Origin: a virus
Lineage: Duplodnaviria; Heunggongvirae; Uroviricota; Caudoviricetes
Reading direction: 5' to 3' (one strand)
IMG/VR virus record: IMGVR_UViG_2698536312_000012
Length of the DNA stretch: 12,391 bases
The position numbers and the translations under genes were made by a program. The notes below the pieces were generated by a model, which worked only from the letters and a program-made list of their open reading frames with translations, did no database searches and was not told the DNA's origin. This document shows, piece by piece, positions 26 through 10,809 of this stretch (the first letter of the stretch is position 1; each line of letters begins with the position of its first letter).

Positions 26-1231
26 TCACCCCGCCACAGAACAATTATTGCTTTTGCCGTTGATGACAATAAAGTTTTTATCGCAGGCGTACCNNNNNNN
101 NNNNNNNNNNNNNNNNNNNNNNNNNNNNNNNNNNNNNNNNNNNNNNNNNNNNNNNNNNNNNNNNNNNNNNNNNNNNNNNNNNNNNNNNNNNNNNNNNNNN
201 NNNNNNNNNNNNNNNNNNNNNNNNNNNNNNNNNNNNNNNNNNNNNNNNNNNNNNNNNNNNNNNNNNNNNNNNNNNNNNNNNNNNNNNNNNNNNNNNNNNN
301 NNNNNNNNNNNNNNNNNNNNNNNNNNNNNNNNNNNNNNNNNNNNNNNNNNNNNNNNNNNNNNNNNNNNNNNNNNNNNNNNNNNNNNNNNNNNNNNNNNNN
401 NNNNNNNNNNNNNNNNNNNNNNNNNNNNNNNNNNNNNNNNNNNNNNNNNNNNNNNNNNNNNNNNNNNNNNNNNNNNNNNNNNNNNNNNNNNNNNNNNNNN
501 NNNNNNNNNNNNNNNNNNNNNNNNNNNNNNNNNNNNNNNNNNNNNNNNNNNNNNNNNNNNNNNNNNNNNNNNNNNNNNNNNNNNNNNNNNNNNNNNNNNN
601 NNNNNNNNNNNNNNNNNNNNNNNNNNNNNNNNNNNNNNNNNNNNNNNNNNNNNNNNNNNNNNNNNNNNNNNNNNNNNNNNNNNNNNNNNNNNNNNNNNNN
701 NNNNNNNNNNNNNNNNNNNNNNNNNNNNNNNNNNNNNNNNNNNNNNNNNNNNNNNNNNNNNNNNNNNNNNNNNNNNNNNNNNNNNNNNNNNNNNNNNNNN
801 NNNNNNNNNNNNNNNNNNNNNNNNNNNNNNNNNNNNNNNNNNNNNNNNNNNNNNNNNNNNNNNNNNNNNNNNNNNNNNNNNNNNNNNNNNNNNNNNNNNN
901 NNNNNNNNNNNNNNNNNNNNNNNNNNNNNNNNNNNNNNNNNNNNNNNNNNNCATCAGCAGGCCTTATCTTTTGTTTAGAGAAAGTCATCTTTACCCAGCT
1001 TTCTCTGGACGCATCATCAGTAAGAGCAGCCTGCGAATCTCCCATACTTACAACCTGGCTGGGCCTTATCCATCGCCCCAGCCCCTCAACCGCACCAGCA
1101 TAAAACATGACAAAAATTGTTTTTGCAGCTATTTCCCGAATTAAATATCCACGATTCTCAGTCCCTTCAGGGAAAATTAATTGTAATCTTTCCCGGATAA
1201 CATTCAATGGGGGAACAACAGGCAGATTCAT
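26..1231 (-). CDS. Methyltransferase-coupled partner protein, candidate restriction endonuclease or other effector; most of the body is masked by N
   Basis: ATG at 1231-1229 overlaps the methyltransferase stop (ATGA), implying translational coupling. The visible N-terminal 93 aa (MNLPVVPPLNVIRERLQLIFPEGTENRGYLIREIAAKTIFV...) look protein-like. The frame is consistent with TGA at 28-26, but continuity through the 858-nt N-run cannot be verified and another frame also stays open to the window edge. Confidence 0.45.
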   Translation of the reverse strand: MNLPVVPPLNVIRERLQLIFPEGTENRGYLIREIAAKTIFVMFYAGAVEGLGRWIRPSQVVSMGDSQAALTDDASRESWVKMTFSKQKIRPADXXXXXXXXXXXXXXXXXXXXXXXXXXXXXXXXXXXXXXXXXXXXXXXXXXXXXXXXXXXXXXXXXXXXXXXXXXXXXXXXXXXXXXXXXXXXXXXXXXXXXXXXXXXXXXXXXXXXXXXXXXXXXXXXXXXXXXXXXXXXXXXXXXXXXXXXXXXXXXXXXXXXXXXXXXXXXXXXXXXXXXXXXXXXXXXXXXXXXXXXXXXXXXXXXXXXXXXXXXXXXXXXXXXXXXXXXXXXXXXXXXXXXXXXXXXXXXXXXXXXXXXXXXXXXXXXXXXXXXXXXXXXXXXYACDKNFIVINGKSNNCSVAG

Positions 1232-3060
1232 GCAATCATCACTCCATAGAAACCAGCGATAGTTCTCTCAATAATCCGTCTGTGGACGCCAGCATCAATT
1301 AACGATTGAATCTCCATCACCTGCTCCAGAGAAGGCAACGGGATTGAATTCAATTCATAGGCCGAAACAGCAACACTTCCGCTTATACACCTGAACGCCC
1401 GATCGACAACATGCGAATTAAGTAGCATATCAATAACATCAGGGCGAACCGCAGAGAACAATCCGTTTGAATATACAATATTAATATGGTTTTCAACTAC
1501 TACGCCACCAGTTTCATCTATAAATCCCTGAGGTAAAATTGCCGCTAAAATCCTTCTGTCCTGTTCCTTCGATGTTGTCCGCTGAACAAGCACACATTCA
1601 GATTTTGTCACAAGGAAACCCTGTTGTGGGGTTATATCGATATAGGGAACATGATTTTTTCTGTCTGCACTAAAACGAAAACCAGCTGAAGTTATTGATT
1701 CCGCCCAGACTAATGGGTAGCTATTTTTTCCTTTCGTCGTACGCAACTGCGACTTAAATCGATTCCAGACTAACTGACCTGTAGAGACTGAGTATCCCAG
1801 ATCAGCTAAACGCGTAGACATCTGTTTTAATACATTAAGAAAACAGGCATCATCTTTAACGCGTGGCAAAAGCCACGTTGCTCCACCTTTTTCTATATCA
1901 ACATTACCTATTTTCTCAATTTTTGCTTTGTTCAACCCCTTAGGGACAAGTGAGGATACCTGGGCCCGAACTTTATGTTCTCCCGCCTTGAATGCTGTCA
2001 ACATTGTTTCCTGGAGAACATCGTCAAAGACCCCATCCCTGTCAGTGACGAAATCAAGGGCATACGGAGTAGTTTTTTCGGTCAAAAGGGTTCGCAGCGC
2101 GGTGAAATACTGCCCACCAAGAAAAGAAGTTGGCGTAAGAAATGCAATAACTCCTGTTTTCTCTTTAACCATGCGAACAGCTAAGTCGGTGAACAATCCA
2201 TATAGATTTGCATGACCAAATAACGAACGAGAATATTTTTCTCTCGTTTTAATATCGAGAGTGACACGTCCGTAAGGCGGATTCCCTACCACAAGATCAT
2301 AACCAGAAAATTTATCTTGCTGAAGCGCATCAGCAACAATAATTGTATCTTCAGGCAATCTACGTTTTACCTTTACACATAGTGGCATTAGTACAGATTC
2401 GAGCAATACCAAACTCATCCAAGCCGCAAATGGATCGATTTCTATCCCCTTTAAACGACGACTGATTCTCCTCAACATCCATTCAGGGGAAGACCCCTTG
2501 TCTTTTTTTAACATTCGAATGGCTACTGGTGCCAAAAATGCACCGCCACCACACGCAGGATCAATAACCGATGCATGAGAAAAATCAACACCAGACTTTT
2601 CAGCCAGGTCCAAGAGACGCGCTACCAAAGGTGGGGGGGTATAGTAAGCCCCCAATTCCGAACGGTAAGCGGATGGCAGCATTACCGTATAAATTGACCC
2701 AATCAGATATCCAGCGTCCTCCGCCGGAAATTGAGCAATAAGCTCACCTGTTCGTTCAGCGAGCTCGCGTGCATCACATGGAATGTCTTCTATGTAAACA
2801 GTGTGCGGTACTGCCCTCATTTTAATGCTGCTTTTTTGCTTTTTTGCAAGGGTATCCCAATATGCAGCTACGATGCTGAAGCAGTATGAGCGGGCATGCA
2901 TCAACCTTGACTGCCCGGTTTTGTAATTGCCCGCATAACCTTTGGCCATGGCTTTACAAGTTTGATATCTTTCCAGATTAGAAAACTCATTATCTGTAAA
3001 AAAATCAAAATGTTGCACATTCATAATGTAAAATCCTAATGTATCAAACATGCGGGCCAT
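1228..3060 (-). CDS. N6-adenine DNA methyltransferase, gamma class (Eco57I/TaqI-like), with C-terminal target-recognition region
   Basis: 610-aa ORF with motif order GAYYTPPPLV (motif X-like), DPACGGGAFL (AdoMet motif I) and VVGNPPYGR (catalytic motif IV), then a ~300-aa C-terminal region with TaqI-C-like features (GQLVWNRF). Start could be ATG 3060 or 3051; both have a weak RBS. Confidence 0.9.
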   Translation of the reverse strand: MARMFDTLGFYIMNVQHFDFFTDNEFSNLERYQTCKAMAKGYAGNYKTGQSRLMHARSYCFSIVAAYWDTLAKKQKSSIKMRAVPHTVYIEDIPCDARELAERTGELIAQFPAEDAGYLIGSIYTVMLPSAYRSELGAYYTPPPLVARLLDLAEKSGVDFSHASVIDPACGGGAFLAPVAIRMLKKDKGSSPEWMLRRISRRLKGIEIDPFAAWMSLVLLESVLMPLCVKVKRRLPEDTIIVADALQQDKFSGYDLVVGNPPYGRVTLDIKTREKYSRSLFGHANLYGLFTDLAVRMVKEKTGVIAFLTPTSFLGGQYFTALRTLLTEKTTPYALDFVTDRDGVFDDVLQETMLTAFKAGEHKVRAQVSSLVPKGLNKAKIEKIGNVDIEKGGATWLLPRVKDDACFLNVLKQMSTRLADLGYSVSTGQLVWNRFKSQLRTTKGKNSYPLVWAESITSAGFRFSADRKNHVPYIDITPQQGFLVTKSECVLVQRTTSKEQDRRILAAILPQGFIDETGGVVVENHINIVYSNGLFSAVRPDVIDMLLNSHVVDRAFRCISGSVAVSAYELNSIPLPSLEQVMEIQSLIDAGVHRRIIERTIAGFYGVMIA

Positions 3061-3274
3061 AACATCTCATGGTGGCGCATAGCAAACTGGCCCGAAGAAT
3101 ATCACGCACCAAGTCGATCTCATAACCCGTTATGACAATAAATCTTTGTAGCTGAACTCACTTGGTGATTTGTCAATCATTCCTGGCCTCCAGTTCGTCC
3201 TGAATCTCTTTATCGAGTTCACCGTATTTGTTAGTCCTCATCACTCACGACTTGACTTCCAGAAATAACCTTGA

Positions 3275-4857: not shown

Positions 4858-5604
4858 TTACTTCACAACTCCCGGAAAGCTGACATTTGAACGCCAGCTA
4901 TCCCAGTTAAACGTCACCCACCGACAACCGTTCATGGTCATGCGGTCCATAATCCTCTCACCAAGAAGCGTGCTCATTGCGGCATGATTCAGGTTTGTTA
5001 ACATCCCGACACTGCACAGTGATGCTGTCCGGCGATCAATTATCTGGTGCAATACCACCTGCTCGTTTTTCGTCTCCCGCTGAATGCCTATTTCATCCAG
5101 GACCAGCAAATCAACCCCGCAAAGCTCCTGTAAAAATTTTTCACCGGATTTGCCGTTGTCGTAGCTGTCATGCAACACGCTCATGACATCAGACACGGTG
5201 ACGATAATCACGCTGCGCCCCTTCGCCATCAGCCAGTTACCCATCGCCGCTGCAAGGTGATTTTTCCCGGTGCCGGTTTTACCGCTGAACACAAAATTCG
5301 TGCACCCGGTCATCAGTTCGTCAGCTATGGATTTGGCCTGGCTCAGCGCGTATTTTTGCCCGTCGTTCTGCACCTGATAATTCGCAAACGAGCATTTGCT
5401 GTGCAGAGGCTGGATGCCCGAACGATTCAGGATTTTTTCCACCCGCAACTGGCGATTCTGGCGGTTAATCTCCTCGCTGCGTTTTCGTCCTTCAGCAAGT
5501 TGCCATTCCCGCCACTCCTCCACCGTCCGGTACGGTGGAACCGCCCCCTGTGGTGCAAGTCTGTGAATACGTTCAAGAACCCCGGCTGCCGCAATGTTTT
5601 TCAT
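4858..5604 (-). CDS. DnaC/IstB-like replication ATPase (helicase-loader analog, YdaV-like)
   Basis: Walker A GKTGTGKNHLA and Walker B LLVLDEIG; 248 aa; lies directly downstream of the O-like gene; RBS GGGGGTGA upstream of ATG 5604. Confidence 0.85.
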   Translation of the reverse strand: MKNIAAAGVLERIHRLAPQGAVPPYRTVEEWREWQLAEGRKRSEEINRQNRQLRVEKILNRSGIQPLHSKCSFANYQVQNDGQKYALSQAKSIADELMTGCTNFVFSGKTGTGKNHLAAAMGNWLMAKGRSVIIVTVSDVMSVLHDSYDNGKSGEKFLQELCGVDLLVLDEIGIQRETKNEQVVLHQIIDRRTASLCSVGMLTNLNHAAMSTLLGERIMDRMTMNGCRWVTFNWDSWRSNVSFPGVVK

Positions 5605-5610
5605 GCCACA

Positions 5611-6675
5611 TCACCCCCTGAATCCCGGCGGAATTTCGGTATCCGGTTCAGAAATATGATTCACACAACGCTGGTTGTTCGTGCCGCTTACCGGGAGCAA
5701 CCAGGGGTTTTCAAAATTCCGGTCCGGCCCAAAAAACGTCGTCGCTCGCTGAACAAATTCCGTTCCCGCTTTCCCGGTCGCCGCCAGGTATCTCGCGTAA
5801 CGCCTCACACCATCCAGCATGGTCTCTGGTGGCACCCCCTCGCGCAATCTGGCCTTCCAGGCACTGAATGCGGATTTCTTCGGGTTTGCCCCGGCACGCA
5901 ACGGGTATTCCCGCCAGACCTGTTCGAACACATCCGGATAATCCACTCGTCCCACAGGCTGCCCGGTGTTTTCCGGGGCTACCCGATCGGCTTCCCGCTG
6001 AATGGCGGAATCGGCTTCAGGCTGCTGCAGTTGGAGTGATTGCTCCGGCCTTGCGGTCATCACCTGCTGCACAGCGCCCGAATCGGCTTTCAGCGCATAC
6101 GCTGAATCGGCTTCCGGTGTCGAGCCTGCTGGCTGACCAGGATTGACGGTCTGAACATCCCCTGCCTGGTTCGTGGCGTTTTTTACGCCATGGACCATAG
6201 TGTTTTGATCTTCTTTATCTGTATCTTTATCTGTATCTGTCGTGACTCGTCGTGACATGTGCGTGACATTTCGTGACGCGCCGTGACAATCGCCATTTTG
6301 TTCCCGCTTTCTTTCCCTCTCTCGCTGCGCCCTCTTGCGCTCTGCAGGAGATTTTGCGGTTTGCGAAATATTGCCGTTGTCCTCTTTAAGCACCTGGCGT
6401 TTTTCCCATCCAGTGATTAAATCACCATCAAGTACCCGCCCCTGCATCGTCTGCAAAATTGAATCAATTACCTCTTCTGTCACGTCGAGCGCACTTGCCA
6501 AATCTTCTGTCGTGACATCAATGTGACCTCGCGTGACATTTCGTGACGCGCTCACCAGGAGGTGGATATACACTGCCATCACTGTTGCAATTGGCTGCCC
6601 TGACACCCTGGCAATTGTTCGCCACTTAGGGTCATTTGGCATGTCATGCCATAATCTGAGCCAGGCGTTAGCCAT
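5611..6675 (-). CDS. Replication initiation protein, O-like/YdaU-like, with DnaT-like C-terminal region
   Basis: ATG 6675 preceded by AGAGGTGA; 354 aa; N-terminal conserved segment WLRLWHDMPNDPKWRTIA, low-complexity acidic middle encoded by iteron repeats, C-terminal AGANPKKSAFSAWKARL...FGPDRNFENPW. Position between the CII-analog and the DnaC-like gene. Confidence 0.75.
   Translation of the reverse strand: MANAWLRLWHDMPNDPKWRTIARVSGQPIATVMAVYIHLLVSASRNVTRGHIDVTTEDLASALDVTEEVIDSILQTMQGRVLDGDLITGWEKRQVLKEDNGNISQTAKSPAERKRAQRERERKREQNGDCHGASRNVTHMSRRVTTDTDKDTDKEDQNTMVHGVKNATNQAGDVQTVNPGQPAGSTPEADSAYALKADSGAVQQVMTARPEQSLQLQQPEADSAIQREADRVAPENTGQPVGRVDYPDVFEQVWREYPLRAGANPKKSAFSAWKARLREGVPPETMLDGVRRYARYLAATGKAGTEFVQRATTFFGPDRNFENPWLLPVSGTNNQRCVNHISEPDTEIPPGFRG
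6241..6287. repeat. Iteron-like array A: five CGTGAC repeats at 10-11 bp phasing (candidate ori)
   Basis: CGTGAC at 6241, 6251, 6262, 6272, 6282; flanked on the left by tandem 12-bp tttatctgtatc x2 (6213-6236); lies inside the O-like gene as in lambda ori. Confidence 0.6.
6511..6551. repeat. Iteron-like array B: four (C/T)GTGAC repeats at 10-11 bp phasing, including a 21-bp exact copy of part of array A
   Basis: Repeats at 6511, 6522 (TGTGAC), 6532, 6542; 6531-6551 gcgtgacatttcgtgacgcgc is identical to 6261-6281. Confidence 0.6.
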
Positions 6676-6746
6676 ACTCACCTCTTCTGATACCGAATCT
6701 TTTTACTCACGAGTTGCCGGGAGCGATTCGATATGGCTATTGTCAG

Positions 6747-7172
6747 TCAATGTACTGCCACAGCATTTCCTGCCGGGCCACCACGGTTCATCTGATTGAA
6801 ACCGGCGATTGCCACTGCGACAAAATCATCAGCGTCTCTCACCAGTCGTTCATGCGTCTCCACCAGTTCCCGAAAATAAGCTGAACTGTGGCTGCGCATT
6901 CGAGCCACCAGCGGAGGTGGCATTGCCCTTTCGATCGCAGGTAACAACGCCTGAATTTTTTCAACAGCGTCAGGGGTGTCTTTATCCAGCCAACGGAAAA
7001 TCTTTTGGGTGTTGAGATAAAGCGTGTTGTGCTTGCTGTCGTTATGCAGAACCGGAAACGTCATTCCCAGTTCGAAATAAACCCTGGTTATTTCAGCTGC
7101 CGGAACTTTTTCACCGTCCGGATGCGCCCAGGCTTTCATCGCCATGCGGATGTGTTCATGCTTGATTTTCAT
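6747..7172 (-). CDS. ydaT: YdaT-like regulator (functional CII analog of Rac/CP-933P-type prophages)
   Basis: 141 aa; start ATG 7172 overlaps the upstream stop (ATGA); the sequence (MKIKHEHIRMAMKAWAHPDGEKVPAAEITRVYFELG...) matches my recollection of YdaT; position is immediately downstream of the Cro-like gene. Confidence 0.7.
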   Translation of the reverse strand: MKIKHEHIRMAMKAWAHPDGEKVPAAEITRVYFELGMTFPVLHNDSKHNTLYLNTQKIFRWLDKDTPDAVEKIQALLPAIERAMPPPLVARMRSHSSAYFRELVETHERLVRDADDFVAVAIAGFNQMNRGGPAGNAVAVH

Positions 7173-7432
7173 GAATCAACCCCCGCCGATGGTTGTGTGT
7201 TAGCCTGAAACTCAGCAGGCAAGCCGTCAGTTGGGTTGGGGTAGGTTTTACTGTCAATCTCATGTGGGGTCACCACCCATCCCGTTGCTTCACACCAACG
7301 TAATATTTTTTCTCCTGTAAGTTTTGCACGCCCCGTTATAACGTGGCTGACCATCCCTTGGGATGCGCCAACAATCTCAGCAAATGAACTCTGGGTTATA
7401 TGAAAATGATGCAAATATTCTCCAAGATTCAT
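7169..7432 (-). CDS. ydaS: Cro-like HTH regulator (YdaS-like)
   Basis: HTH segment ITQSSFAEIVGASQGMVSHVITG; first gene of the leftward operon leaving the divergent operator region; ATG 7432 preferred over the TTG at 7459 used by the ORF track. Confidence 0.7.
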   Translation of the reverse strand: MNLGEYLHHFHITQSSFAEIVGASQGMVSHVITGRAKLTGEKILRWCEATGWVVTPHEIDSKTYPNPTDGLPAEFQANTQPSAGVDS

Positions 7433-7468
7433 AATCCGCCCTATGTGATGTGTTACCAATGCATAATT

Positions 7469-7533
7469 AATAGCACTGTTATTTTTAAAAGTAAATAGTG
7501 ATGCTATTTCAAAGTGATTAGCAATCTTATTAG
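7469..7533. promoter_or_regulatory. Divergent operator/promoter region with three related operator sites
   Basis: aATAGCactgTTATTt (7469-7484), aaATAGtgatgCTATTt (7493-7509), aTTAGCaatcTTATT (7518-7532); about 24-26 bp spacing; leftward promoter candidate TTTACT-17-TATTAA overlaps the sites. Confidence 0.55.
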
Positions 7534-7543
7534 AATTGGATGT

Positions 7544-8044
7544 ATGAAAAGAAAATCATTGTCAGACACCGACCTCAACGCCGCCAGAAGACTGAAAGAA
7601 ATCTGGATGGCAAAGAAATCTCAGTTGGGATTGACTCAGGAACGTGCGGCGGAAATTATGGGGTTTTCAACACAAGGGGCGGTAAGTCACTACCTAAATG
7701 GTCAAACCCCACTAAACCTTGAGGCTGTTCTAAAGTTTGCTGGCTTACTGAAAGTTCCCCCTGAGTCAATCAGGCCAGACATGGTAGATTTGCTGCAAAT
7801 TGCAAGGATGTATTGTCGAGAACCACAGCAAGATAACATAGTCGCATTACCAGCAGACACAGAACAAACAGAGGATGAACTACCGTTTGCCGTAGAGCCG
7901 ATGGAACGAGATTTAATCCATACGTTCAGAGCTTTTCCGAAAGAAGATCAAGAACACATGCTTCAGGAGATGAAAGATAAAAAAGAATCAATGGATCGTA
8001 CGGTTGCGCGGTGGTTAGCTGCACAAAAAGGCCGTCGCGCCTAA
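7544..8044 (+). CDS. paaR2: HTH (XRE-family) repressor, PaaR2-like regulator at the cI position
   Basis: HTH LTQERAAEIMGFSTQGAVSHYLNG; 166 aa from ATG 7544 (ORF track uses GTG 7514); first gene of a three-gene operon with antitoxin and ParE toxin; divergent from the Cro-like gene. Confidence 0.7.
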   Translation: MKRKSLSDTDLNAARRLKEIWMAKKSQLGLTQERAAEIMGFSTQGAVSHYLNGQTPLNLEAVLKFAGLLKVPPESIRPDMVDLLQIARMYCREPQQDNIVALPADTEQTEDELPFAVEPMERDLIHTFRAFPKEDQEHMLQEMKDKKESMDRTVARWLAAQKGRRA

Positions 8045-8063: not shown

Positions 8064-8258
8064 ATGAGTACAGTCCTTTCCCCAATGGTTTCAGAATTTG
8101 AGACAGTTGAGCAAGAAAATAGTTACAACGAATGGCTGCGGGCCAAAGTAGCAGCAAGCCTCGCGGATCCCCGCCCGGCGATTCCGCATGATGAGGTAAT
8201 GGCGGAAATGGAACAAATTATTGCCCAAATTGCTGCTGCAACTCACAGAGGTGAATAA
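8064..8258 (+). CDS. paaA2: Small antitoxin (PaaA2-like) of the ParE toxin
   Basis: 64 aa; AGGAGA SD 9 nt upstream; stop overlaps the toxin start (TAATG); acidic, helix-prone sequence typical of antitoxins. Confidence 0.75.
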   Translation: MSTVLSPMVSEFETVEQENSYNEWLRAKVAASLADPRPAIPHDEVMAEMEQIIAQIAAATHRGE

Positions 8259-8548
8259 TGTTACCCGTTTTATGGCTACCATCTGCTCGTGATGATTTGC
8301 GCCAGATCGTAGCCTACATAGCTAAAGAAAATCCCGCGGCAGCACGCAGAATGAAAATTCGAATTGAAACATCCGTTTTGCCGCTCACAGAGCATCCTTA
8401 CCTGTATCCTCCAAGCGAGCGAGTTCTTGGTCTTCGTGAAATTGTAACTCATCCTAACTACATCATCCTTTACCGAGTAACAGCATCAAGCATAGAAGTA
8501 GTAAATATTGTGCATTCTCGAAGACAGTATCCAGGCAAAAACAGTTAA
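8258..8548 (+). CDS. parE2: ParE/RelE-superfamily toxin (ParE2-like)
   Basis: 96 aa; ParE-like segments WLPSARDDLRQIVAYIAKENPAAARRM and EVVNIVHSRRQYP; translationally coupled to the upstream antitoxin. Confidence 0.85.
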   Translation: MLPVLWLPSARDDLRQIVAYIAKENPAAARRMKIRIETSVLPLTEHPYLYPPSERVLGLREIVTHPNYIILYRVTASSIEVVNIVHSRRQYPGKNS

Positions 8549-9764: not shown

Positions 9765-10060
9765 AAAGTGAATTTTGTGATGCGGTGAATGCGGCTCAGC
9801 GCACGCGGCACAGTTAAAAAGCGATTAGTTCCCCCGTATCGGGTGGTTATGGGTTTCCCTGTATCCGGCGTTAATTGTTAACTGGTTAACGTCACCTGGA
9901 GGCACCAGGCACCGCATCAACAAAGTTCACTTCGGTGATGAAAGGAAAGAGAAAATGTTGAATGTAGCTATTGAAAACCAGAACGGGTGGAATTATAGTG
10001 CACCTGCACCTTATAAAACGGGTGCCGGGCGTGGAAACCCGAACGTTACTCGAGCGCATA

Positions 10061-10082
10061 GCCGCGCTGAAGCGGTTTTTTT
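10061..10082 (+). terminator. Candidate intrinsic terminator or attenuator hairpin in the Rha leader
   Basis: agCCGCgctgaaGCGG followed by seven T; additional flanking complementarity cgcata / tatgcg; short stem, so weak. Confidence 0.3.
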
Positions 10083-10251
10083 ATGCGTAATGCACAGCTC
10101 CATTCAAATTATGGTGGGATGTGCAGGGCAGTCGCAAGACTGGCCGGGTTCTCGAGTGACCGGTATTTCCACCCCTGTACGTCACACCACCCTTATGGTC
10201 GTGGAAAACCTCGGTGGTGAGTTAATTAACTTATCACTCGAGGATGCCATC

Positions 10252-10809
10252 ATGGCTACTATCCCTGCCCTTTCTCACCCTGACGTAACCATCGAAAATG
10301 GTCGCGCTGTCACTACGTCTATTGCGATCGCAGAGTTCTTTGGCAAGCGTCACGACAATGTGTTACGTGCCATCGCAAATACTGAATGCTCACCTGAATT
10401 TAACGCCCTCAATTTTGAGGACGTCACCTACACTGACGCCAAAGGCGAAAAACGCCCGATGTACCAAATCACCAAAAACGGCTTCGTTTTCCTGGTGATG
10501 GGATTCACTGGCAAAAAAGCCGCTGCATTTAAAGAAGCCTACATTGCTGAGTTCGATCGCATGGAGGCCGAACTGCGCCAGAATAACACCCCACCCACTG
10601 ACAAAATAATTCCAGGCGATGGCCGCACCCTGGTTGTTCACTTCGACGAACGCGGCAACATCAGATTCACCGAAACCGTTCCTGATGGCGCACGGGTCTG
10701 TACCATGGAGACTTTCCGGTTTTATCTGGAAGAACAGGGATGGACTCTTGTTAACCGGGGCGCAATTAAAAATATGACTGTAGAGCAATTACTCAAAATT
10801 CATTGTTGA
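10252..10809 (+). CDS. rha: Rha-family phage regulatory protein
   Basis: Rha-like segment AIAEFFGKRHDNVLRAIAN...MYQITKNGFVFLVMGFTGKKAAAFKEAYIAEFDRME; ATG 10252 with AGGA SD 7 nt upstream puts the domain near the N-terminus. The same frame is open back to an ATG at 9955 with a strong SD (AGGAAAGAG), so a 284-aa form is possible. Confidence 0.7.
   Translation: MATIPALSHPDVTIENGRAVTTSIAIAEFFGKRHDNVLRAIANTECSPEFNALNFEDVTYTDAKGEKRPMYQITKNGFVFLVMGFTGKKAAAFKEAYIAEFDRMEAELRQNNTPPTDKIIPGDGRTLVVHFDERGNIRFTETVPDGARVCTMETFRFYLEEQGWTLVNRGAIKNMTVEQLLKIHC

Follow-up and report, generated by a model that had tools for sequence, protein, structure and literature searches.

We examined a 12,391-nucleotide stretch of DNA (the window) from a virus of the class Caudoviricetes (IMG/VR record IMGVR_UViG_2698536312_000012) and found that a gene on its minus strand, encoding a putative replication initiator, contains two arrays of the hexamer GTCACG followed by an A/T-rich tract. 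From comparison with relatives of this gene, we consider it likely that positions 6198 to 6547 are where a lambdoid prophage begins to replicate, at an iteron-type origin of the lambda and SPP1 kind, and that this origin is embedded in the gene that encodes its initiator. A reading made earlier from these letters alone (the sequence-only reading) had proposed a candidate prophage origin here, consisting of iterons in the initiator gene and an adjacent A/T-rich tract, and the comparative evidence lends that proposal strong support. The same reading had called the gene O-like, a name that is apt by analogy and does not denote homology to lambda O, the whole protein having no Pfam match at E ≤ 0.01, Phage_rep_O included.

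Read on the plus strand, the hexamer is CGTGAC, and it starts at 6241, 6251, 6262, 6272, and 6282, in steps of 10, 11, 10, and 10 bp. Direct reading thus bore out the array that had been described at 6241 to 6287 (array B), and Tandem Repeats Finder found it independently as a period-10 array at 6239 to 6288. For the array nearer the gene start (array A), four copies of CGTGAC had been counted at 6511 to 6547; three of these are exact (6511, 6532, and 6542), and the one at 6522 is TGTGAC, so that only the 5-mer GTGAC occurs there four times. Array A accordingly has four copies (three exact and one degenerate) and array B has five, with about 230 bp between the arrays and, within this interval, one inverted copy at 6479 to 6484 that the sequence-only reading had overlooked. 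Two further repeats noted in that reading proved exact: a 21-nt duplicate, GCGTGACATTTCGTGACGCGC, at 6261 to 6281 and 6531 to 6551, and a tandem of two 12-bp units, CTTTATCTGTAT, at 6213 to 6236. The tandem was also called by Tandem Repeats Finder, as a 12-bp unit present 2.2 times (or a 6-bp unit present 4.8 times) at 6212 to 6240, so that both the period-10 array and the A/T-rich tandem were recovered by the repeat finder.

Nine of the 10 copies of CGTGAC in the window fall within the 307 bp from 6241 to 6547, and just one stray copy of GTCACG/CGTGAC lies outside the region of the arrays. Because shuffled sequences gave 4.4 copies per whole window, only about 0.11 copies would be expected in 307 bp (Poisson probability of nine or more, about 6e-15). 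In the complete genome of Escherichia phage Tritos (46.4 kb), the sole cluster of the hexamer sits in the initiator gene, with 9 copies in 350 bp, and the next densest stretch has 2.

The tract that follows array B in the direction of the gene encodes TDTDKDTDKEDQN and is a putative DNA-unwinding element. GC content drops to 0.30 at 6200 to 6239 (0.30 to 0.35 over the tract), compared with about 0.55 to 0.6 in the flanks, and the tract is the most A/T-rich stretch of the initiator gene. Across 27 relatives, GC content averaged 0.32 in the 45 nt that follow array B, versus 0.54 gene-wide, and the gene-wide GC minimum began where array B ended in 24 of them; at least two of the three exceptions were counting artefacts caused by stray downstream hexamers. 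Furthermore, the AGATAA(A/G) repeat was retained even when translated in another frame. The tract showed no self-pairing in a DNA fold. Inside it, at 6207 to 6219 on the plus strand, lies GATCTTCTTTATC, which contains a Dam site and bears a loose resemblance, with three mismatches, to the oriC 13-mer consensus GATCTnTTnTTTT; GATC occurs within the A/T tract of several relatives too.

An inverted repeat of uncertain membership in the origin abuts the tract (Table 1) and was flagged as terminator-like on the plus (antisense) strand. Lambda likewise has a palindrome beside its A/T tract. The idea that the repeat at 6167 to 6197 is a conserved origin element with compensatory changes was dropped, the palindrome being absent from an allele that shares this segment (locus L121, described below).

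A match to positions 6150 to 6700, a segment of the initiator gene, was present in 2256 of 5426 complete Escherichia coli genomes, with O157 prophages among them. A scan of viral contigs returned only copies that were 98 to 100% identical, which are informative for copy-number variation alone. Wider comparison was afforded by Aeromonas phage pAEv1818 and Pseudomonas phage 5399, in which the N-terminal domain of the initiator (N-domain) is found at about 70% amino acid identity, and by 35 usable 5-kb genome loci from many genera that encode the N-domain. The layout of two arrays and an A/T tract was present in both of these phages, in an O157 prophage, and in 23 of the 35 loci; it occurs in more than 20 genera, including Aquitalea, Rahnella, Bordetella, Pseudomonas, Acidovorax, Gilvimarinus, and Chromobacterium. 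The order was one array at about nt 129 to 160 of the gene, another at about nt 387 to 450, and then the A/T tract. GTCAC(G) occurred three to six times at each array position and almost nowhere else in the 5-kb loci, its spacing was 10 or 11 bp without exception, and most relatives had an inverted GTGAC at about nt 193 of the gene, which corresponds to the inverted copy of the window. Copy number was not fixed, differing from three to six per array with a gain or loss of residues. Relatives of the initiator are widespread in many Proteobacteria.

These comparisons support selection on the DNA itself. The hexamers occupy all three codon phases; those of array A start at codon positions 3, 1, 2, and 1 and are translated as A-S-R, V-T, G-H, and V-T. 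Using 20 genes with less than 90% nucleotide identity, we compared the codons of conserved residues (Mann-Whitney test) and found that normalized synonymous-codon entropy was 0.086 where the third position lay inside a hexamer (n = 12) versus 0.756 elsewhere (n = 77; p = 2.5e-7). Hexamer codons were GTC for Val (20/20), ACG for Thr (20/20), GGT for Gly (20/20), and CAC for His (19/19), and elsewhere in the same genes all the codons for these four residues were used. The sequence-only reading had held that DNA and protein constraints coincide; the occurrence of hexamers in all three frames, together with their frozen synonymous positions, means instead that the DNA constraint dominates, the arrays lying in a loop and a linker that tolerate them.

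In more distant relatives, other hexamers were present at the same two places: GTAACG in four loci (Pantoea, Enterobacter, Marinobacter, and Sphingomonas), CGAACG(C) in four, and ACTACG in two. The GTCACG copies of Erwinia and the GTAACG copies of Pantoea and Enterobacter (loci L028, L024, and L026, respectively, at about 2620 to 3010) occupy homologous positions and differ by synonymous changes. The inverted copies of Enterobacter show the complementary switch, from CGTGAC to CGTTAC, which is again synonymous. Since the motif switches in both orientations without a change in the protein, it appears to be read as duplex DNA and not as mRNA or peptide. The Pantoea locus is intermediate, with its forward copies switched and its inverted copies remaining CGTGAC, and all three loci contain the palindromic pairs GTCACGTGAC and GTAACGTTAC.

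The synonymous positions and the switches bear on the idea that the DNA repeats have no function as DNA and are a by-product of peptide repeats or of slippage or gene conversion in low-complexity coding sequence. ASRNVT is encoded twice (amino acids [aa] 44 to 49 and 134 to 139), as the sequence-only reading had stated, although the RRVTT that it had also counted twice occurs once, the other copy being IDVTT. The linker is repetitive (DKDT, PEADSA) and polymorphic in length, and gene conversion could homogenize the copies in a genome. Such an origin for the repeats is nevertheless scarcely credible: the hexamers are read in three frames as different residues, their synonymous positions are frozen in 20 diverged genes, in contrast to the drifting spacers and remainder of the gene, a period of 10 to 11 bp is not a multiple of 3, the inverted copies have switched in a complementary manner, and the A/T motif is retained in different frames.

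It might also be supposed that the hexamers are bound by some factor other than the initiator, such as a host protein, the YdaT/CII-like protein or a Cro/CI regulator, or a centromere-binding protein. Two arrays of four to five helically phased short direct repeats are not specific to origins, and plasmid R1 parC has a comparable geometry; moreover, the window has a CII-like gene upstream, as do the Aeromonas and Pseudomonas phages. We regard a factor of this sort as very unlikely. GTCACG, GTAACG, and CGAACG differ among related phages of similar hosts, which disfavors a conserved host factor. GTCACG is absent from the cI-cro operator region, and the window has only the one stray copy elsewhere. 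The window and phage 5399 have CII-like proteins from different PHROGs families (163 versus 101), yet the hexamer is identical, and partition genes (ParR/ParM or ParA/ParB), which would favor a centromere, were found neither among the open reading frames (ORFs) of the window nor in the annotation of Tritos.

Two loci, L037 (Serratia) and L039 (Pantoea), carry at the position of array B (about 2820 to 3200) an insertion of about 100 residues that begins with ACTACG(TA) repeats encoding YVYYV. L039 has a second set of repeats, CGTAGC, about 330 bp downstream. Identification of this insertion as a GIY-YIG domain was rejected, as it matched no Pfam domain and its 'YVYYV' is itself encoded by the ACTACG repeats.

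Table 1. Features of the putative origin, the initiator gene, and the surrounding operon (window coordinates; + is the strand as presented)
Feature	Position	Strand	Remarks
Initiator (replisome-organizer-type) gene	5611..6675	-	354 aa from ATG at 6675; start in the ORF list is GTG at 6681
N-terminal winged-helix-like, putative origin-binding domain	6391..6675	-	aa 1-95
DnaT-like C-terminal domain	5614..5943	-	aa 245-354, ending ...IPPGFRG
Iteron array A, nearer gene start	6511..6547	-	GTCACG on gene strand at + coordinates 6542, 6532, 6511; degenerate GTCACA at 6522; steps 10, 10, 11
Lone inverted iteron copy	6479..6484	+	GTCACG on + strand; about 30 bp beyond array A, read in gene direction
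Iteron array B	6241..6287	-	Five GTCACG on gene strand at + coordinates 6282, 6272, 6262, 6251, 6241; steps 10, 10, 11, 10
A-rich (gene strand) tract, putative DNA-unwinding element	6198..6240	-	(AGATAA/AGATAC)n; exact 12-bp tandem at 6213-6236; GATC at 6207-6210
Inverted repeat, origin membership uncertain	6167..6197		13-nt arms, 5-nt loop; abuts A/T tract; dG -8.7 kcal/mol, z -3.07
DnaC-like helicase-loader gene	4858..5604	-	Directly downstream of initiator gene
YdaT/CII-like gene	6747..7172	-	Upstream of initiator, same operon
Cro-like helix-turn-helix gene	7169..7459	-	Upstream of initiator, same rightward-type operon
CI-like repressor gene	7514..8044	+	Divergent

The domain make-up of the protein and the loader gene beside it fit an initiator. 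Its ATG is preceded, 5 nt upstream, by a GAGGTG ribosome-binding site. The protein matched phrog_3729, 'replication initiation protein', in PHROGs (E 3e-250), its relatives carry the Prokaryotic Genome Annotation Pipeline name 'phage replisome organizer', and the gene shares 97% identity with replication genes from the Escherichia phages Tritos and Evi. An AlphaFold2 model has a confident N-domain (aa 1 to 95), disorder from about aa 96 to 244, and a confident helical C-terminal domain (C-domain). The N-domain, described as winged helix-turn-helix- or DnaD N-terminal-domain-like, matched Pfam Phage_rep_org_N (PF09681) over positions 1 to 119 of 121 at an E value of 0.008 and 16.6 bits, below the cutoff of 23.3; at E ≤ 10, the only Pfam matches to this domain were Phage_rep_org_N and HTH_Crp_2. 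DUF1376 (PF07120), which matches YdaU at 2.7e-26, had no match in the window protein. A profile search of the PDB linked the C-domain to DnaT (primosomal protein 1), with 6aep at E 1.9e-8, 2ru8 at 3e-6, and 9zbt at 1e-5, along with 4ou6 and 4ou7. The extreme C terminus scored 18 bits with NCBIfam DnaT against a cutoff of 201, and the initiator is not a DnaT orthologue or equivalog. A Foldseek search of the PDB with the full-length model found nothing significant (best E 0.33).

Array A encodes aa 43 to 57, SASRNVTRGHIDVT, which form a loop between helices 29-45 and 56-63 of the model, where the predicted local distance difference test (pLDDT) score dips and where relatives have insertions of 7 to 20 residues. 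Array B encodes aa 130 to 147 of the linker, predicted to be disordered (pLDDT 35 to 40), and array B and the A/T tract together encode aa 130 to 157. Both arrays thus fall, in the model, where the protein can tolerate them, one in a surface loop and the other in the disordered linker. The disordered linker also contains PEADSA repeats, encoded by four minus-strand copies of GAAGCCGAT at 5986, 6010, 6082 (with one mismatch), and 6106 within 5986 to 6114, in steps of 24, 72, and 24 nt. Across E. coli alleles, the initiator protein ranges from 302 to 374 aa.

The residues of the N-domain that track iteron class lie only within the loop encoded by array A. Array A might therefore be imagined to encode the loop of the DNA-binding domain by which its own repeats are recognized. 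Any mutation of the repeat would then alter site and reader at once, and a self-encoded reader loop of this kind would allow new replication specificities (the GTCACG, GTAACG, CGAACG, and ACTACG classes) to arise by a mechanism intrinsic to the gene. We think this improbable, because the switch from GTCACG to GTAACG is synonymous and because the loop is modeled with lower confidence and tolerates the insertions just described.

As to mechanism, we infer a sequence of binding, unwinding, helicase recruitment, and the start of replication at this site. The winged-helix-like N-domain would bind the 6-bp core GTCACG (gene strand), one per helical turn, in two arrays of the same orientation, and the initiator proteins would line one face of the DNA and possibly bridge both arrays, like the lambda O-some. 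Once bound, they would destabilize the A-rich (AGATAA)n tract that starts right after the second array, and the DnaT-like C-domain and the neighboring DnaC-like loader would deliver the host DnaB helicase. Transcription from the cro-side promoter would traverse the origin, as in lambda.

Several points weigh against an origin at this site. In the literature searched, we found no binding or initiation experiment on this initiator family. Because the sites lie inside the gene, N-domain and site are necessarily inherited together, which cannot count as independent support for recognition. A core of 6 bp is unusually short for an iteron. None of the N-domain residues outside the loop encoded by array A tracks iteron class, so that no specificity determinant was identified. 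Finally, two Ventosimonas metagenome-assembled genomes (L030 and L036) have no recognizable periodic hexamer at either array position; the linker of L036 nonetheless has (GATAAA)x8.

The arrays could instead be sites for the initiator that serve mainly in control, with strand opening elsewhere. Bound there, the initiator might repress transcription of its own initiator-loader operon or act as a roadblock to it, copy number might be governed by 'handcuffing', or related phages might be titrated or excluded. The separation of the arrays, with array A about 270 bp from the A/T tract, resembles the control arrays of iteron replicons; the sites would be traversed by transcription that starts at the cro-side promoter; and rep-lambda phages are inhibited by plasmid-borne iterons (PMC3349717). 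However, array B is always joined to the GC minimum of the gene, the classic geometry of iterons and an unwinding element, and the complete genome of the related phage Tritos has no further hexamer cluster. Control as the main role thus seems unlikely to us, and it would be compatible with an origin rather than exclusive of one.

The domains and partners of the initiator occur in several combinations. The same N-domain and arrays are accompanied by a DnaC-like loader in the window, a lambda-P-like loader in O157, and a primase/helicase in Pseudomonas phage 5399, and in SBF22 and Tritos they have no adjacent loader. Unrelated N-domains joined to a similar linker and C-domain bring their own repeats. 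An allele of E. coli PapRG-04-4 (L121, 1462 to 2571) has two arrays of AAGGGGCTT beside an (AGATAA)-type tract, and YdaU of the Rac prophage of strain K-12 (L122, 2120 to 2977), with a DUF1376 N-domain, has TGTTCAA/TGTTGAA repeats, mostly in one cluster, followed by a AGATAAAGAT / AATAAAGATACAGATAAAGATC tract. N-domains and C-domains are exchanged at a point immediately beyond the A/T tract.

The CI-like repressor, Cro-like, YdaT/CII-like, initiator, and loader genes are the immunity-replication module of a lambdoid prophage, and transcription of the operon would run through the putative origin. The loader gene matched Pfam IstB_IS21 and Bac_DnaA, phrog_50 ('DnaC-like helicase loader'; E 1e-80), and NCBIfam PRK12377 (500 bits) and DnaC (300 bits). 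Rfam had no RNA family in the region of the arrays, and promoter and terminator scans gave results at chance level. Elsewhere in the window, Rfam isrK (61 bits) and C4 antisense RNA (71 bits) lie back to back at 10006 to 10194 on the plus strand, at the start of an Ash/Rha-family ORF (9955 to 10809), and look like an antirepressor control module of the P1/P7 type. A protein with a BsuBI/PstI-type endonuclease helix-turn-helix domain (26 to 1231, minus strand) and an Eco57I/N6-adenine methylase (1228 to 3060, minus strand) are likely a restriction-modification pair. A ParE-family toxin gene (8258 to 8548, plus strand) is preceded by a small ORF (8064 to 8258).

The principle of an intragenic origin has been textbook knowledge since lambda, but for this very common initiator family it is apparently undescribed; our searches of the literature for GTCACG iterons, for replisome-organizer origins in lambdoid or O157 prophages, and for DnaT-like phage initiators turned up nothing on this family. 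Knowing the core of the iterons, how the two arrays are laid out, and the A/T element should make it possible to predict, for these prophages, both their origins and the groups to which they belong in replication specificity (incompatibility or exclusion), and the hexamer classes would be natural specificity swaps that allow simple tests. The arrays also provide a clear case in which a cis-acting DNA signal overprints coding sequence in all three frames, at places where the protein tolerates it.

Lambda has four 18-bp iterons and a 38-bp A/T tract inside O (PMC3349717), and in Stx phages extra iterons add residues to O (PMC7466680). As with ori-lambda, the putative origin described here lies in the initiator gene of a pR-type operon, with repeats and then, downstream in the linker-coding part, an A/T tract of about 40 bp; as in lambda and Stx phages, extra iterons lengthen the protein and a loader gene follows. 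Unlike in lambda, the initiator is not homologous to O, and the repeats form two arrays separated by about 230 bp; the part of the gene that codes for the DNA-binding domain contains the first. Whereas lambda iterons are 18 to 19 bp long with internal dyad symmetry, the core here is 6 bp and direct, with variable flanks and a period of 10 to 11 bp. The C-domain is DnaT-like and its partner is DnaC-like instead of P, although the loader that accompanies O157 alleles is P-like.

In SPP1, oriL is inside gene 38, and gene 39 is adjacent. The replisome organizer G38P binds the SPP1 origin, and the helicase-loader protein G39P is next in the assembly pathway (PMC5615212). The window initiator is probably of the same replisome-organizer type, its N-domain matching Phage_rep_org_N end to end but at a score below the gathering cutoff, and a helicase-loader gene follows it, as in SPP1, but of another family than G39P. 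Unlike G38P and G39P, the initiator has a DnaT-like C-domain and the loader is a DnaC-like AAA+ protein. A second, distant binding region of SPP1, oriR, is named in the title of a 1997 paper by Missich et al. that is cited in PMC5615212; in contrast, both window arrays are in one gene, and Tritos has no second cluster.

The window shares with Rac of E. coli K-12 the gene order repressor, Cro-like YdaS, YdaT, initiator, and DnaC-like YdaV, and it shares with YdaU the ...IPPGFRG tail and the arrangement of repeats followed by AATAAAGATACAGATAAAGATC. Rac is reported to have an active origin, oriJ (PMC3945230); the literature that we found on oriJ consists of indirect mentions, in which its position relative to ydaU is not given. 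Unlike the window initiator, YdaU has a DUF1376 N-domain, unrelated by Pfam to that of the window, and its repeats differ. With E. coli DnaT, finally, the initiator shares its last 100 residues or so, which match the C-terminal (single-stranded-DNA-binding) domain; unlike in DnaT, this domain is fused to a putative origin-binding domain in a phage initiator.

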